A DNA stretch of 64,000 bases from contig NC_086108.1 in the NCBI RefSeq assembly GCF_963921235.1, positions 39,620,001-39,684,000 of the forward strand. The letters run 5' to 3'. Positions 47,809-53,672 of the stretch are shown piece by piece; within the stretch, counting starts at the first letter, position 1; every line of letters starts with the position of its first letter. This DNA comes from Mobula hypostoma. Its lineage: Eukaryota. The position numbers and the translations under genes were made by a program. Under the pieces are notes generated by a model that worked only from the letters and a program-made list of their open reading frames with translations, had not been told where the DNA came from and did no database searches.

Positions 47809-48480
47809 ATTAGATTAGATTAGATTATGAGGACACTCAGTCCTCGTTTATTGTCATTTGGAAATGCATGCATTAAAAAATGATCCAATGTTCCTCCGGA
47901 GGGATACCACAAGAAACACAAGCCAAACCAAGACTAAAACTGACAAAACCACATAATTATAACATATAGTTACAACAGTGCAGAACAATACCGTAATTTG
48001 ATAAAGAGCAGACGATGGGCACGGTAAAAAAAGTCTCAAGTCCCGATAGCCCCATCATCTCACGCAGAAACTCTCCCTACGATGAACTTCCACGTGCCGC
48101 AAACTTGCAGATGCATTGGAAGCACCCTACAGCAGCCGACTCTATGAGTCCGTCCGAAAACTTCGAGCCTCTGACCAGCCCTCCGACACCGAGCACCGAG
48201 CACCATCCTCTGCCGAACGCTTCGACCCCTCCCCAGCCACCGAGCAACAAGCAAAGCCAAGGACTCGGGGCCTTCCCCTCCGGAGATTCTGGACCACACA
48301 GTAGCGGCAGTAGTGAAGCAGCCATTTCAGAAGTTTCACCAGATGTTCCTCCGTGCTCTCACATCGCTCTCCATCAAATCAGGATTGTGCACGGCACCCT
48401 ACTTGAAAGATAACAGATATCATCATCATTGGAGTGGCTGCAGCAAGCTACGTCGCGTCGCGTCGCCATCTTCTCCCTCC
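47809..48480 (-). mobile_element. Non-coding ~650-bp non-autonomous retroelement with (aatct)n tail
   Basis: Begins ggagaagatggcg on the minus strand and ends AATAAA...cataatctaatctaatc. Homologous to 55172-55787. Confidence 0.75.
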
Positions 48481-49124
48481 TGGCTGATCTGGTCATGGAC
48501 TTGCTCATTTTTCCCATAACTCTTAATTTCCCTGCTATGCAAAAATCTATCTACTGTGAGAAAGGATCTAGTGCTTTCCTGGCGTATATGACAAATAAAC
48601 TCTTATCAGGCTTCCAGCTGGGTACAGTTATCGATTTTAACCAACGTTTTGATGACAAACTGCCATCTTCATCACCAGTGATGGCCTGGGCATATCTAGT
48701 TTCTGCTATCCCACTTTGTTTACAATCAAATTCCAGTTCTTACTTAGAGTGAAACCTTCACCTTTGAGGTACTGGAGGTAAAGAATTTTAACAAAAATGA
48801 AGTGTCACTGAGTGGCGCCATTGATGCCCTTGCTGCCACTGAAAATGCTTGTTGAGAACTATCTATTAATACTCTTAGCTTTTCAAAGCAATATTAGGTT
48901 TATGCATTTCCATTCTCTGCCACTAAAGGTATCCTTTGCCTTGCAGAGATTGCACTAGTAAAATACATATTGTGCATTTGTGTTTGATAATTTTTCAATA
49001 AAGTTTTTAACCAATGCATGATCTCCATGCATCTTAAAAGAACACCTTTTTTGTCAGTCTGTCTTACAGAAAGTATGACATTCTTATCAGTGATATCGTG
49101 CCAATTCCAGAGCGAGTTCCGAAC

Positions 49125-49432
49125 CGGAAGCTGGGCCGCCTCAGCCACGTAGCGGTGGCAATGCCGGAGATGGAGCGGGCTGTGCCTTTTACCGGGAGGC
49201 GCTGGGCGGCCGGGTGGGTGAGCCGGTGGTTCTGCCCGAGCACGGCGTCAGCGCGGCCTTCGTGGAGCTGGGCAACACCAAGTTGGAACTGCTGGAGCCA
49301 CTGGGCGAGCGCAGCCCGATCCTCAGCTTCCTCCGCAAGAACCCTGGCGGCGGCATCCACCACGTTTGCCTGGAGGTGGACCACATGGCCACTGTCCTTC
49401 AGCAGCTGCGGGCCCAGCAGGTGCGTACCCTG
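49125..49432 (+). pseudogene. MCEE: Methylmalonyl-CoA epimerase fragment, frameshifted and C-terminally truncated
   Basis: KLGRLSHVAVAMPEMERA [1-nt frameshift ~49185] YREALGGRVGEPVVLPEHGVSAAFVELGNTKLELLEPLGERSPILSFLRKNPGGGIHHVCLEVDHMATVLQQLRAQQVRTL matches the MCEE VOC/glyoxalase-fold core. Confidence 0.9.
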
Positions 49433-49632
49433 TTGCCGCCTCTTGGTGAGGCCGAGGTCAGGGCCCGGCCCTGGGCCGCCCGCCGCCACCGCACCATCGG
49501 CAGCCTGCAGCCAGTGCGAGGCAGCGGCGGGTGGAGGGGGCGAGGCCCAAGGCCTGGAGCTGGCCTGCCGCTCATCGTGACCGCCGCCGCCCACCCCCGC
49601 CACCTGGTACGGCCAGCGCAGCAGCGAGCTGC

Positions 49633-52600
49633 GAGCCCACTTCCATAGGCCAGTAACCAAGGTGATCATCCCAACGGTGGAGCAGGCGGAAGAGGAGACA
49701 TCTCCCAACGGCTGCAAAGGCCGATGAGGATGCCCAACAATGGGTAGGGAGGCTTGCGAGCACGCCGCAAGAACTGCCGTAGACCCACAACACTCAGGGC
49801 TTGTCTACCTAGCGTGTGAAGCCTGGATTCGGCGGACTGCGCAGAAGAAACCATCACTGGTTCAACGGGCAGAAAGGCGATTCTCAGTAATGCGTCGTGG
49901 AGCGCTAAGAGGGCACAGTGAGACACACAGAACACTGCTGGCCATCCACTGCATCCTGACCTATCTCCAGCCGTCTCGACTATGTCTTGCCACTGGGTCC
50001 AGATAGGCCGGGACGAGAAAGTGAGGCTGACGACCTGCGCAACTCTCCCTCACTTTAATCCAAGTCAAGCGCAAGTCCTGACTTCAAACCCAACGCGCAA
50101 CACCTAAAGTCCTGTGGCGATGGGGGAGTGGCGAAGCAGCAGGTACGGATACAGTGGAAGCTGTAGTCACAAACCTGCACACAGGCGTACCAGGGCATAG
50201 GGTCGCTCTCTACTGGACCGAAGCAGCTGTTGAGTTCGGCAGCCCCCTGGGTGTCTGAGCAGCCCTCTTTCGGATCGCTCTGCTCACCTCCATGGAGGAA
50301 GGGGCTGGAAAAGGTGCCTCCAACATAGTCTGCTTCACTTCACCCTGGCCAGCTTACCGCGGCTGGTGGGGATCCCTCATAGCGGTCGACCTACAACAGT
50401 GAAGAAGAAAGTGATGGTGCTCACCCTTGGCACATGGAACGTGAGAACTCTGCGAGATAACATCAAGGCAGACAGACCAGAGAGAAGAACCGCACTGGTT
50501 GCAAAAGAGCTAGCTCGCTACAACGTGGACATAGCAGCTCTCAGCGAAACGCCCCCAACAGACAAGGGCCAGCTGACAGAACGTAGCGGTGGATACACGT
50601 TCTTCTGGAGCGGTCGCAGCAGCGCTGAACGACGAGAAGCAGGCGTGGGATTTGCCATCAATTCTAACCTCGCCCGTAAACTCATCAAGCACCCAGAGAG
50701 CATCAACGACCGCCTGATGACACTTCAGCTCCCACTTGCAAACAAGAAGAGTGCTACGCTGATTAGTGCCTACGCTCCCACCATGACCAACCCAGATGAC
50801 ATTAAAGACAAGTTCTACGAAGAACTCGACGCCCTCATCTCAGCAATCCCACAGTCAGAGAAGCTCATCATTCTTGGGGACTTCAATGCCAGAGTAGGGA
50901 CAGACTACCAAACCTGGGAAGGGATCATTGGAAGACACGGCACTGGCAAGTGTAACAACAATGGCCTTCTGCTCCTCAAGACATGTGCCACACACGACCT
51001 TGTCATCACCAACACCCTGTTCCGCCTACACACCTGTAAGAAGACGTCATGGATGCACCCACGCTCGAAGCACTGGCATCTGATTGACTACATCATCACC
51101 AGGAAGAGGGACAGGATGGATGTCAGAGTGACAAGGGCCATGTGTGGTGCTGACTGCTGGACTGATCACCGCCTCATTGTGTCCAAGTTCAGGCTTCGCA
51201 TTCTGCCCATGAGAAGACCCCAAGGGCAGAAGACGGCAAAGAGGCTGAATGTCTCCAAGCTGAAAAGCGGCAGGGTTGCAGAAGAACTCGTCGATGACCT
51301 TGAAGGCAGACTGTCAGACACACCACAGGATGATGGGACCAGCGTTGAGGAACAGTGGACGGCCTTCAGAGATGCTGTCTACACTACCGCCCTCGAACAT
51401 CTCGGACCAGCAGCTCGAAGAAACCAAGACTGGTTCGATGAGAATGATGAAGAAATACAGGCACTACTAACGGTGAAACATCAACATTACAGAGCGCATC
51501 AGAACGACCCCACGTCGCTAGCCAAGAAAGATGCCTTTACCAACGCAAGAAGAAAGGTGCAGAAAAAATTTTGTGAGATGCAGGACAGCTGGTTCAGCAA
51601 GAAGGCCGATGAAATCCAGGGCTATGCAGACAGCTACAACATAAAGCGCTTCTACGATGCGCTTAAGGCTGTATACGGACCCCAGTCCTCCGGCTCCTCA
51701 CCCCTCCTCAACGCAGATGAGACGCAGCTGCTGACAGAGAAGAAGCAGATTCTGGATCGGTGGGCTGAGCACTTTAACAACGTCCTTAACCGCCCTGCTG
51801 ACATCAACGACGAGGCCATTGCCCACCTGCCCCAGGTAGAGATCAACAAGAATCTCGACACCCTCCCCACAGTAGATGAAGTCAGGAAGGGAGTGAAGCA
51901 ACTCTCCTGTGGCAAAGCGCCAGGACCCGATGCAATCCCTGCTGAGGTATACAAAGCAGGAGGCCCTATCATGATGCAAAAGCTGACTGTACTCTTCCAG
52001 TCCATGTGGAAAAAGGGACAGGTCCCGCAACAGCTGAAAGATGCCAGCATAGTCCGCATCTACAAGAGGAAAGGCAACCGCCAGTCTTGCGACAGCCACC
52101 GAGGCATCTCCCTCTTGTCCATTGCGGGGAAGATTCTGGCCCGCGTCCTGCTCAACCGCTTTCTCCAACATCTTGAGCAAGGTCTGCTCCCAGAAAGCCA
52201 GTGCGGCTTCCGTGCTGAACGTGGGACCGCGGACATGATTTTTGCTGCGCGCCAACTCCAGGAAAAATGCCAGGAGCAACACAGCGACCTCTTCGTGACC
52301 TTTGTCGATCTAACCAAGGCTTTCGATACGGTCAGCAGAGAAGGCTTGTGGAAGATCATGGAGAAGTTTGGCTGCCCCAGCAAGTTCATCACAATCGTCC
52401 GGCAGTTCCACGACGGTATGATGGTGAAAGTTCTGGATGACGGCGACAAGTCGGAGGCCTTCCCAGTGACAAATGGCATCAAACAAGGCTGTGTTCTTGC
52501 CCCGACTCTGTTCAGTATGGTATTCTCTGCCATGCTGACAGATGCCTTCCATAACTACGAAGAAGGAATCCACGTCAGGTACAGGACTGACGGCAGGTTG

Positions 52601-53672
52601 TTCAACCTTAGGCGCCTGCAGGCAGTTACAAAGGTGCAAGAGACTGTCATCAGAGACTTGTTGTTTGCTGATGACTGCGCACTCAACGCCAGCACAGAGC
52701 AGGAGATGCAGCGTGAAATGGACTGCTTCTCACAAGCCTGCAACAACTTCGGTCTCACTATCAGCACCAAAAAGACCGAAGTTATGTACCAGCCTGCCCC
52801 AGGAAAGCCATACCAGGAGCTGCGCATCACGGTGAAGGGCCAGAACCTCCAGGCAGCCGACAACTTCACCTACCTGGGCAGCATACTCTCTTGCGCAGTG
52901 AATATCGACGCTGAGGTCAACAACAGGATTGCCAAAGCCAGCGCCGCCTTTGGGAGACTCTGTGAGAACGTCTGGGAGCGGAGAGGACTCAGCCTTACCA
53001 CCAAGCTGAAGGTCTACTTTGCAGTGGTCCTTACCACCCTCCTTTACGCCAGTGAGACCTGGACTGTCTACAGCAGACACGCCAAACAGCTCAACCACTT
53101 TCACCTGAGCTGTCTCCGCAGACTCCTCCACATCAGGTGGCAGGACAAAGTCCCCGACACGGAAATCCTGGAACGAGCTGGGCTCTGCAGCGTTTATACC
53201 CTCCTGCTGAAAGCCCAAGCCAGGTGGGCTGGAAATGTGGTCAGACTGCCAGACAGCCGATTGCCTAAGCAGCTGCTGTACGGAGAACTGTGTCAGGGCA
53301 AGCGCTCAGTCGGGGGGCAGAAGAAACGCTACAAAGACTGTCTCAAAGCGTCCCTCAAAGGCCTGGGTGTCGACATCAACACGTGGGAGACGCTTGCCCT
53401 CGACCGTCCAGCTTGGCACAGCAAGATCACCACAGGAGCCCGTGCAGCTGAAGTCAGGCGCATCATTGAGGCGCAACGAAAGCGTGCTGTGCGCAAGGCC
53501 CGAGCAGCATCCACTGCCACGACAGCACCCACCCACTTGTGTCCCACATGTGGGCGAGCCTTCAGGGCCCGGATTGGCCTCATCAGTCACCTCCGGACCC
53601 ACAGCCACCAATCTCCCATTTGACTTTGAAGCCATGGTCATCTTCGACTACGAAGGACGAACAACAACAACA
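49633..53672 (+). mobile_element. Full-length RTE-clade LINE (5' boundary approximate)
   Basis: Single long APE-RT ORF, ~40-bp 3' UTR, (ACA)n tail at 53661-53672. Confidence 0.9.
50366..53623 (+). CDS. RTE polyprotein: APE endonuclease, RT and C-terminal C2H2 finger (first ATG at 50414)
   Basis: Uninterrupted 1085-codon ORF: GTWNVRTL, YAPT, GDFNA, TDH; KAPGPD, DLTKAFD, KQGCVLAP, LFADD; CPTCGRAFRARIGLISHLRTH. Confidence 0.96.
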   Translation: MGIPHSGRPTTVKKKVMVLTLGTWNVRTLRDNIKADRPERRTALVAKELARYNVDIAALSETPPTDKGQLTERSGGYTFFWSGRSSAERREAGVGFAINSNLARKLIKHPESINDRLMTLQLPLANKKSATLISAYAPTMTNPDDIKDKFYEELDALISAIPQSEKLIILGDFNARVGTDYQTWEGIIGRHGTGKCNNNGLLLLKTCATHDLVITNTLFRLHTCKKTSWMHPRSKHWHLIDYIITRKRDRMDVRVTRAMCGADCWTDHRLIVSKFRLRILPMRRPQGQKTAKRLNVSKLKSGRVAEELVDDLEGRLSDTPQDDGTSVEEQWTAFRDAVYTTALEHLGPAARRNQDWFDENDEEIQALLTVKHQHYRAHQNDPTSLAKKDAFTNARRKVQKKFCEMQDSWFSKKADEIQGYADSYNIKRFYDALKAVYGPQSSGSSPLLNADETQLLTEKKQILDRWAEHFNNVLNRPADINDEAIAHLPQVEINKNLDTLPTVDEVRKGVKQLSCGKAPGPDAIPAEVYKAGGPIMMQKLTVLFQSMWKKGQVPQQLKDASIVRIYKRKGNRQSCDSHRGISLLSIAGKILARVLLNRFLQHLEQGLLPESQCGFRAERGTADMIFAARQLQEKCQEQHSDLFVTFVDLTKAFDTVSREGLWKIMEKFGCPSKFITIVRQFHDGMMVKVLDDGDKSEAFPVTNGIKQGCVLAPTLFSMVFSAMLTDAFHNYEEGIHVRYRTDGRLFNLRRLQAVTKVQETVIRDLLFADDCALNASTEQEMQREMDCFSQACNNFGLTISTKKTEVMYQPAPGKPYQELRITVKGQNLQAADNFTYLGSILSCAVNIDAEVNNRIAKASAAFGRLCENVWERRGLSLTTKLKVYFAVVLTTLLYASETWTVYSRHAKQLNHFHLSCLRRLLHIRWQDKVPDTEILERAGLCSVYTLLLKAQARWAGNVVRLPDSRLPKQLLYGELCQGKRSVGGQKKRYKDCLKASLKGLGVDINTWETLALDRPAWHSKITTGARAAEVRRIIEAQRKRAVRKARAASTATTAPTHLCPTCGRAFRARIGLISHLRTHSHQSPI

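Follow-up and report, generated by a model that had tools for sequence, protein, structure and literature searches.

Host MCEE sequence as an inherited 5' leader in an RTE-like LINE family of Mobula hypostoma

Through comparison of the window, the whole 64,000-nt stretch of Mobula hypostoma DNA analysed here, with the remaining genome, a fragment of the gene for methylmalonyl-CoA epimerase (MCEE) was identified as the inherited 5' leader of one variant, termed A, of a multi-copy, RTE-like LINE family. The element at 49099-53672 of the window is one 5'-truncated daughter of this variant; it bears a short inverted tip, and its ORF is open. Its parts are listed in Table 1.

Table 1. Parts of the A-variant LINE copy in the window (window positions)
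Position	Strand	Feature
49099-49104	+	TGCCAA, 6 extra bases at the 5' junction, after the AT-rich flank and ahead of the MCEE-derived sequence; matches neither MCEE strand
49105-49121	+	Inverted tip; MCEE CDS nt 52-68 in reverse complement, 17/17 bases matching
49122-49125		4-nt spacer after the inverted tip
49126-49433	+	Sense copy of host MCEE CDS nt 65-373 (codons 22-124), the A leader
49434-49638	+	GC-rich, 205 nt; copy of the C80 locus L069:1616-1807, antisense to OTUD5-like exon 1
49639-50413	+	Rest of the LINE 5' UTR, common to the A and B variants
50414-53623	+	Single open ORF, 1069 aa and stop; AP-type endonuclease, reverse transcriptase, weak C-terminal C2H2-like finger
53624-53672	+	3' UTR, 49 nt, with an (AAC)n/(ACA)n run at the end

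The window copy and the donor of its leader

The GC content rises from 0.33 (48900-49099) to 0.68-0.77 (49100-49599) and is back at 0.34-0.37 past 53600, in agreement with the abrupt switch from AT-rich to GC-rich DNA near 49100 reported in the original prediction, which had been made from the sequence of the window alone. The inverted tip (49105-49121) is not mentioned there. For the window copy, a comparison of 60 or 30 nt of upstream flank with 60 or 40 nt of downstream flank gave no exact repeat of at least 6 nt that could be a target-site duplication.

The open frame of the LINE extends from stop to stop over 1129 codons (50234-53623), with the first ATG at 50414; the RTE ORF had been correctly predicted to be open, but its length from the first ATG is 1069 and not 1085 aa. 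The domains Exo_endo_phos (residues 66-292; 3.9e-13) and RVT_1 (residues 615-884; 2.1e-34) both lie in this one frame, and the motifs GTWNVRTL, GDFNAR and FADD are present in its translation. Plus-strand open frames within 49434-50414 do not exceed 92 aa, apart from the frame running in from the MCEE part. RTE elements are not known to have a long ORF1, and characteristically their very short 3' UTR closes with short tandem repeats rather than poly(A). The same layout was found here, with the endonuclease followed by the reverse transcriptase (RT) in one long ORF and no long ORF1 upstream. Of the 20 fetched copies, 17 terminate in an (AAC)n/(ACA)n tail, the alignments of the other three (L053, L058, L065) stopping before the tail. 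The LINE may be called RTE-like on the basis of its ORF layout and 3' end. Among its protein relatives the identity steps down from 96% through 84-60%, and one relative, from a frog and labelled “Reverse transcriptase”, shows 68% identity. The 33-mer at the 3' end of the LINE has 653 genomic sites, and the segment 50101-50403, shared by A and B, is absent from other variants of the family.

The frame 49094-49648 matches the profile Glyoxalase_4 (2.2e-11), and the segment 49126-49432, corresponding to CDS nt 65-372, is 96.1% identical to the host MCEE gene over 308 alignment columns. Codons 1-21 and 125-155 of MCEE are absent from it. A 1-bp deletion near 49180 is private to the window copy, since both other copies covering the site (L002 and L003) are without it. 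The description of about 100 aa of MCEE with one frameshift and a missing C-terminus was thereby borne out. The truncated peptide would have no enzymatic role, as it lacks the C-terminal quarter of the fold.

The host MCEE gene is located on the minus strand of a contig other than that of the window (G000:C5:126106781-126107245; L011/L013), is intronless and contains the only intact MCEE ORF in the genome (155 aa). It matches the model TIGR03081 over its full length (positions 1-129 of 129) with 169.8 bits, at a cut-off of 115 bits; the frameshifted, end-lacking fragment gives no full-length match and is therefore not an MCEE gene. A protein search of the genome revealed no multi-exon MCEE, second MCEE locus or split MCEE copy. 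One match on contig C81, which seemed to reach residue 146, was considered as a second MCEE and rejected, being an ordinary LINE-linked copy (L047).

The contrast in composition with the AT-rich flanks would fit a foreign MCEE fragment, acquired horizontally and brought in by the LINE. Against this, the host gene is 96% identical to the fragment and equally GC-rich (0.686, with a GC3 of 0.853, versus 0.684 for the fragment), and it continues past the fragment at both ends. The differences from host MCEE common to all copies covering them are limited to two, both synonymous third-position changes; at one of these, position 49225, the base of the leader is also found in MCEE contigs of a second organism. 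A foreign donor is thus extremely improbable and this part of the original prediction was not upheld; the donor of the fragment is the host's own MCEE gene.

The fragment had also been said to read through an MCEE exon junction, CLE/VD, as a sign of an RNA intermediate. Human MCEE possesses three coding exons, of which exon 3 starts at c.379, according to the available text of PMC5037260. In the alignment to the human MCEE chain 3RMU, with Arg47 as the anchor, the human exon 2/3 junction maps between E105 and V106 of the host protein, which is the CLE/VD position. The fragment is indeed continuous there, but this is uninformative about an RNA intermediate, because host MCEE itself has no intron at this place.

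Spread of the junction and exchange of leaders

The junction, in which GTGCGTACCCTGA on the MCEE side is joined to TGCCGCCTCTTGG on the LINE side, is common to all A copies, which therefore have a single origin. A 26-mer spanning it was found at 26 genomic sites (at most 3 mismatches), versus 0 for a reversed-pattern control, and a first search detected MCEE sequence contiguous with the LINE at 24 further loci. The genome-wide copy count proposed along with the original prediction thus showed that the fragment is not single-copy. That prediction had left the choice between a template-switch or 5'-transduction chimera and an RTE family carrying the fragment; family cargo is what was found. A one-off chimera at the window locus, whether formed by one template switch or by one 5' transduction, is suggested by nothing beyond the look of the window copy, and in view of the 26 junction sites and the 24 further contiguous loci it is hardly conceivable.

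The 5' starts of the A copies are spread over 49151 to 49429. Exact target-site duplications of 8-12 nt accompany 6 of the 13 direct A copies, versus 3 of 380 mismatched flank pairs. The upstream flanks of the A sites are unrelated, save for one pair of sites on C36 with 99.4% identity between their upstream flanks, and segmental duplication was on this ground excluded as the source of the 26 sites for all but the C36 pair. A 15-nt deletion within the MCEE part is common to L002, L006 and L027, the start points of which differ; the leader has thus spread from more than one source state.

No full-length A copy was found, and no direct copy extends beyond MCEE nt 65. Among 22 scored candidates of the protein search, the MCEE N-terminus is present only in the host gene and in two inverted copies at different loci, L026 and L031, where MCEE nt 78 to -12/-17 stands inverted ahead of nt 353 (L026 is the longer of the two). 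Inversions at the 5' end occur also in L083 and in L053, whose segment 49306-51092 is inverted relative to 51170 onward.

A sister variant, B, is present at 24 sites and carries a leader other than MCEE; the A leader stands in place of the first 108-128 nt of this older leader. The segment 49434-49638 is 87% identical to the C80 locus, and the B copies match on contiguously to L069:1487. The B leader and 49434-49638 both derive from exon 1 of an OTUD5-like host gene, copied in antisense. The roughly 200 bp of GC-rich sequence which the original prediction had noticed without assigning it is thus real, and it is now traced to this exon. In the OTUD5-like case, the final 39 nt of exon 1 reach precisely to the splice donor of the exon. 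A third leader opens with exon 1 of a RING-finger gene, extending from its 5' UTR to 0-2 nt from its donor; three copies with this leader are truncated at different points and share no common 5' end. The OTUD5-like leader is the older one and the RING-gene leader the younger.

A pile of 5' starts at 49434 was considered as the native 5' end of the LINE and rejected, the copies concerned sharing another leader. In the segment 49434-50000 no fixed difference between A and B was found, and their divergence is the same, at 6.25% among A copies, 6.45% among B copies and 6.36% from A to B. Since the leaders originate from MCEE, the OTUD5-like gene and the RING gene, the family has turned to host transcripts again and again to rebuild its 5' end.

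Joining of MCEE to the LINE

The favoured explanation, with a probability of about 0.45, is a single capture, in which a 5'-shortened element within the MCEE transcription unit was transcribed from the MCEE promoter as a chimeric RNA. A LINE shortened at its 5' end would have come to sit inside this unit, and the host promoter would have driven one chimeric MCEE-LINE RNA, starting at the MCEE transcription start, probably about 12-17 nt ahead of the ATG. The source locus would since have been lost, or may be missing from the assembly. As to the 5' end of the RNA, the inverted copies stop at MCEE -12/-17, and contigs matching host MCEE, which come from sequencing runs guessed to be RNA, extend upstream of the ATG by 3-37 nt. 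The host-promoter route has been used to explain multi-copy LINE chimeras, for example RAP1GDS1-L1PA2, in the available text of 10.1101/2025.02.02.635956.

The lack of a full-length A copy and of any direct copy past nt 65 favours a host promoter over a self-starting founder. The inverted A variant is itself present in two copies (L026 and L031), which means that retrotransposed daughters can be sources, and the argument from missing full-length copies is weaker for it. A host promoter is also favoured by two other leaders of the family, which end at host exon-1 splice donors (within 0-2 nt for the RING-gene leader). Insertion into the sole MCEE gene would amount to a knock-out, a consequence that speaks against promoter trapping. 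No source element was found at MCEE: the gene on C5 is intact, with no LINE in the 3.4 kb around it.

The junction was considered as a product of splicing, and this was rejected, because the MCEE side lacks a GT and the LINE side an AG; a good donor, CAG/GTGCGT, located 12 nt upstream of the junction, is unused. The two parts share a microhomology of 2 nt (GA), which fits template switching equally well. The main rival, somewhat less favoured, is a template-switch founder: the reverse transcriptase on a B-type LINE RNA would have jumped, 108-128 nt short of the RNA 5' end, onto codon 124/125 of the MCEE mRNA through the 2-nt microhomology and copied to the mRNA 5' end, after which the chimeric insertion would have become a source. 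The GA at a junction that is not a splice site agrees with such a jump, as does the sense orientation of an MCEE part apparently reaching the mRNA 5' end. The same holds for the same-sense fusion, in which a single target-site duplication encloses both parts, and for the many 5' rearrangements associated with reverse transcription in the family (the window tip and the inversions of L026/L031, L053 and L083). Template-switch chimeras of LINE and cellular RNA have been described (PMC2104539) and are discussed in 10.1101/2022.11.04.512097. Against this origin, chimeras of that kind usually stay unique, while the present junction is repeated at 26 sites. A founder of this type would also be without the MCEE promoter, the GC boxes of which lie upstream of the transcript, and would have to start transcription at its own first base; no founder copy was found.

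Quite unlikely is a joining at the DNA level, by ectopic recombination, end joining or gene conversion between genomic MCEE and LINE copies, followed by mobilisation. The mere 2 nt of microhomology would suit it, and the RNA evidence does not touch the joining itself. Against it, the MCEE part ends at or near the mRNA start, without promoter DNA, and the three other captured pieces with readable ends each have one end 0-2 nt from an exon end. Captured ends at exon ends indicate transcripts, not DNA, as the source.

Parts of the stretch occur in 15 runs guessed to be RNA, no run with such parts being on record as RNA, and contigs were examined from 8 runs. Those over 49126-49432 continue at both ends as host MCEE, and those over 49434-49638 as the C80 locus. 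No contig from the 8 runs bridges the MCEE-LINE junction, and this lack of direct evidence for a present-day chimeric RNA counts against the favoured explanation; assembled contigs drop rare forms and are silent on expression of the chimera. The MCEE transcript appears to be colinear with its gene, as judged only from 30-nt loose contig ends.

Comparison with known systems and meaning for the family

Switching of 5' ends has been described for SolRTE, the RTE LINEs of Nicotiana (Hartig, Seibt and Heitkam; 10.1101/2022.11.04.512097, available text), in which the body and 3' end are conserved and the 5' UTRs are non-homologous and partly mosaic. As possible routes, the authors mention a fusion with host mRNA and a truncated insertion next to a promoter. 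The family studied here is similar in its conserved LINE body and 3' end and in the non-homologous leaders of its variants. In contrast to the plant host of SolRTE the present host is an animal, and the A and B variants are inseparable by body sequence. For SolRTE, the available text gives one new 5' sequence as “of unknown origin” and names no donor gene, whereas here three leader donors were identified at base level in the same genome.

In the case of RAP1GDS1-L1PA2, the available text of Law and Burns (10.1101/2025.02.02.635956) describes an intronic L1 acting through promoter co-option and 5' transduction. Both systems combine host 5' sequence with a LINE whose 5' end is compromised, and show one junction at several loci with distinct target-site duplications. 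The differences relate to the LINE clade, to the number of insertions (four versus 26 sites here) and to the source. The source of RAP1GDS1-L1PA2 is known and its junction is a splice junction, whereas for the MCEE leader no source was found, the donor is intronless and the junction lies within the CDS without splice signals.

Template-switch chimeric retrogenes are represented by U6-L1 and by the bipartite and tripartite chimeras of Buzdin and Gogvadze (PMC2104539, available part). They share with the A variant the same-orientation fusion of cellular RNA and LINE, one target-site duplication and a short microhomology at the junction. These chimeras are reportedly for the most part unique, dead insertions, unlike the present chimera, which is inherited and amplified. 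SVA_F1 is said to be a retroelement subfamily defined by the captured exon 1 of MAST2 at its 5' end. It resembles the A variant in that a host first exon heads a subfamily, but SVA is non-autonomous and reportedly captured exon 1 through splicing. The MCEE leader did not arise by splicing, while two other leaders of the LINE family look spliced. Twin-priming 5' inversions of L1 were reportedly described by Ostertag and Kazazian in 2001. The arrangement of an inverted 5' segment ahead of a direct 3' one, a little internal sequence being lost, is seen similarly in L053, and also in L083, L026/L031 and the 17-nt window tip. In contrast to L1, the family is RTE-like, and one inverted leader has itself been passed to a second copy.

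On a wider and rather doubtful reading, the 5' ends of host transcripts would serve as exchangeable front ends of the LINE, and the CpG-rich pieces from MCEE, the OTUD5-like gene and the RING gene would supply promoter or start-site activity. If this is true, a scrap of the coding sequence of a metabolic enzyme works as a transposon promoter, and an upstream ORF would begin at the MCEE start codon of the ancestral A leader. The window copy has MCEE codons 43-124 in frame with about 72 codons from the OTUD5-antisense piece, and this frame (49094-49648) could then encode a new leader peptide.

One false lead is removed, as nothing suggests horizontal transfer of the MCEE fragment. Swapping of LINE 5' ends is known, but the origin of the new front ends seldom is, and here the donors can be read directly. 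With base-resolved junctions and several to dozens of copies per leader in the LINE family, “promoter rejuvenation by host capture” becomes testable in one species. The MCEE leader was likely picked up once, from a host transcript, and adds one more case in which LINEs have renewed their 5' ends with pieces of host genes.

Structure and distribution of the MCEE leader

The composition of the window delimits the insertion: GC content climbs at 49099, from 0.33 to about 0.7, and drops back after 53672. Its ORF encodes an endonuclease of the AP type together with a reverse transcriptase. Putative membership of the RTE clade ("RTE-like") is based on the architecture: endonuclease and RT share one ORF, the 3' UTR is short and the tail consists of simple repeats; in a homologue search without usable taxonomy, the identity of the protein's relatives falls stepwise, from 96% to 84-60%. 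The original prediction of an MCEE fragment joined to an RTE LINE described the insertion correctly, except for the inverted tip and the length of the ORF, which is uninterrupted as claimed but comprises 1069 aa from the first ATG. A second GC-rich patch (GC 0.54-0.60) is located at 48000-48400, ~700 nt upstream of the insertion.

Features of the window insertion and of the host donor loci
Feature	Location	Strand	Details
Unassigned bases	49099-49104		six bases
Inverted tip	49105-49121		17 nt, reverse complement of MCEE CDS nt 52-68
Sense MCEE copy	49126-49432		CDS nt 65-372 (codons 22-124), one 1-bp deletion
GC-rich piece	49434-49638		205 nt
Rest of 5' UTR	49639-50413		775 nt
ORF (ATG to stop)	50414-53623		unbroken; 1069 aa from first ATG, 1129 codons stop to stop
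3' UTR	53624-53672		49 nt, (AAC)n at end
Host MCEE gene	L011:1405-1872 = G000:C5:126106781-126107245	minus	intronless complete ORF, 155 aa
Donor of leader B plus 49434-49638	L069:1487-1807 (C80 locus, L069:1231-1893)	opposite	in exon 1 of the OTUD5-like gene on the opposite strand
RING-gene donor	L075, C45 near 89887000	minus	

Among the 165 candidates of the first genome search, 40 matches were scored: in 24 loci beyond the window, MCEE sequence runs uninterrupted into the LINE; 15 others begin at 49434-49439 and have no MCEE sequence; the last is the host gene. A single junction, ...GTGCGTACCCTGA followed by TGCCGCCTCTTGG, is common to all MCEE-bearing copies (leader A); its 26-mer occurs at 26 genomic sites with at most 3 mismatches, and the reversed control at 0. 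The 5' starts of these copies are spread over 49151 to 49429, and their upstream flanks are unrelated, with the exception of one duplicated pair on contig C36. Of the direct copies, 13 were retrieved with both ends, and 6 of these have exact target-site duplications of 8-12 nt, which occur in 3 of 380 control pairs of mismatched flanks; the window copy has none of at least 6 nt. Only two differences from host MCEE are shared by the copies, both at synonymous third positions. The frameshift in the MCEE part is private to the window copy, and a 15-nt deletion in this part is common to three copies with different start points (L002, L006 and L027), so that leader A has been transmitted via more than one source state. 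Judged from these sequences, the MCEE leader is a feature of the LINE family and has a single origin. The recurrence of the junction at 26 sites confirms the suggestion of an RTE family stably carrying the fragment and refutes that of a one-off chimera at this locus.

The host MCEE gene as donor

When the 3.48-Gb genome containing the window was searched, one site, on contig C5, matched the MCEE part alone, with 96% identity. Its ORF scores 169.8 bits (cut-off 115) over the full length of the methylmalonyl-CoA epimerase model TIGR03081 and shows, by eye, 60-70% identity with the human enzyme along the entire solved chain. In a protein search of the genome with all 22 candidates scored, neither a second MCEE gene nor a multi-exon version was found, and all remaining significant matches (E below 0.01) are LINE-linked fragments. 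The GC content of the gene (0.686; GC3 0.853) equals that of the fragment (0.684); with this and the 96% identity, the foreign donor considered originally is refuted.

Human MCEE has three coding exons, with an intron at the position corresponding to CLE/VD in the fragment (PMC5037260), as placed by alignment of the host and human proteins; the host gene has no intron there. The read-through at CLE/VD, originally taken as a sign of an RNA intermediate, is real but was inherited from an intronless donor, and is therefore uninformative on the route of capture. The only detectable host MCEE is intronless, with a GC3 of 0.85, GC boxes upstream and AT-rich flanks (GC 0.38-0.43), whereas the human gene has three coding exons; the host gene is possibly a retrogene by which the parent was replaced.

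Leader B and the origin of the MCEE joint

All 15 copies starting at 49434-49439 extend upstream into a common sequence, leader B, of which the longest copies contain 108-128 nt; a search with the 25-mer across its junction gave 25 sites, including one host locus. Together with 49434-49638, leader B forms one contiguous copy of a stretch of contig C80 (L069:1487-1807; 87-92% identity over 287-327 nt) located within the first exon of a gene on the other strand. The product of the C80 gene starts with MTILPKQQ and contains GYNSEDEYE, which we take to be motifs of OTUD5, and the gene is called OTUD5-like; its exon 1 ends with a GTGAGG donor. Contigs of 0.77-1.9 kb (depth 36-640) in six sequencing runs contain the piece and run on as the C80 locus. 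Since 49434-49638 matches this exon, the 200 bp originally described as unidentified are an older host capture, in antisense. There are zero fixed differences between A and B copies in 49434-50000, and A copies diverge from one another by 6.25%, B copies by 6.45% and A from B copies by 6.36% (2.8-3.1% without CpG sites); the two leaders were used concurrently.

The joint between MCEE and the LINE is not a splice product and shows a microhomology of 2 nt (GA). The main rival account of this joint, somewhat less probable than the favoured one, is that reverse transcription switched templates, from LINE RNA to MCEE mRNA, and that the product then became a source; joining at the DNA level is improbable. 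The favoured origin, with a probability of roughly 0.45, is that a 5'-shortened B element came to lie within the MCEE transcription unit and would have been transcribed from the housekeeping MCEE promoter. In two copies with inverted leaders at different loci (L026 and L031), MCEE nt 78 to -12/-17 (counted from the ATG) is inverted, and this limit would mark where the chimeric RNA begins, coinciding with the MCEE transcript start; contigs matching host MCEE, from runs guessed to be RNA, extend to -3 to -37. Transcription from the MCEE promoter is favoured by (i) the multi-copy state of the chimera; (ii) the putative start of the chimeric RNA at the MCEE start; (iii) the ending of the family's other leaders at host exon-1 donors; (iv) the same explanation given for published propagating LINE chimeras (10.1101/2025.02.02.635956). 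No direct A copy beyond MCEE nt 65, no full-length A copy and, whichever model is considered, no source locus of A was found in the assembly.

Further leaders, the window copy and known systems

Four copies (L072-L074 and L076) retain only the final 31-33 nt of the MCEE piece, behind exon 1 of a C45 gene that encodes a RING finger (zf-RING_UBOX, 25.6 bits; cut-off 25.2). This exon, up to 379 nt, extends in the longest copy from about 103 nt before the ATG to within 0-2 nt of the splice donor, and is followed first by 21-23 nt with full identity to the end of an exon-like C2 segment (L080, C2:62587811) and then by MCEE from an AG at 49401-49403. Two joints within 0-2 nt of exon ends suggest that this leader was spliced. 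The most numerous 5' variant (57 sites, 26 with zero mismatches) bears ~44-nt tandem repeats at its 5' end (L085:630-1030; L084, reverse strand), reminiscent of mouse L1 monomer promoters. In both loci an antisense piece of the OTUD5-like exon comes after the repeats, and next come 39 sense nt, the last of OTUD5-like exon 1, ending exactly at its donor; this order is what would be expected if a spliced chimera of exon 1 and the LINE had undergone a 5' inversion. Several copies (L084, L086) lack ~304 nt of the 5' UTR (window 50101-50403, 50100 joined to 50404), as does one X5 contig (50097 to 50404); the ends of the gap are not GT..AG.

Inversions at the 5' end are frequent (L053, L083, L026/L031 and the tip of the window copy) in the family, which has at least 653 3' ends. 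In L053 (C45), L083 (C91) and L024/L025 (C36) the 5' part is inverted relative to the 3' part with a small internal loss; in L053, inverted 49306-51092 adjoins the part from 51170 on. Twin priming in L1 yields such a pattern, seen here in an RTE-like family.

Among the direct A copies found, the window copy is the longest. Among 20 other fetched copies, only a B copy (L064, 1116 codons) has a comparable frame, the next longest being 995 codons and the others at most 806. From the per-column majority in 49434-50000 it differs by 0.44% at non-CpG sites (A-copy mean 1.4%) and by 3.2% with CpG sites included, which places it among the younger copies, with many CpG sites lost. Neither the first 64 nt of the MCEE CDS nor any known promoter is present in it; the MCEE peptide that it could encode is without what is presumably the C-terminal quarter of the fold, and no enzymatic function is expected of it.

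The MCEE leader is a further member of a described kind, its nearest counterparts being Nicotiana RTE LINEs, RAP1GDS1-L1PA2, template-switch chimeras and SVA_F1, a retroelement reportedly carrying MAST2 exon 1. In the MCEE case the donors are identified, the leader is coding sequence of a gene without introns, and the joint is not a splice site. RTE LINEs in Nicotiana are described as switching 5' ends, and in that account the section on new 5' UTRs, in contrast to the present case, names no donor gene (10.1101/2022.11.04.512097); RAP1GDS1-L1PA2 is presented as co-option of a promoter by L1, with four insertions (10.1101/2025.02.02.635956). No paper on an MCEE-LINE chimera was found in the open-access literature and bioRxiv.

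One of the two differences from host MCEE shared by the copies is matched in MCEE contigs from a second organism, which have the base of the leader: at 49225 the leader has G and the host gene A, with A in the contigs of organism A (runs X1-X4) and G in those of organism B (X5-X7). This base could serve to date the capture with respect to the divergence of organisms A and B.
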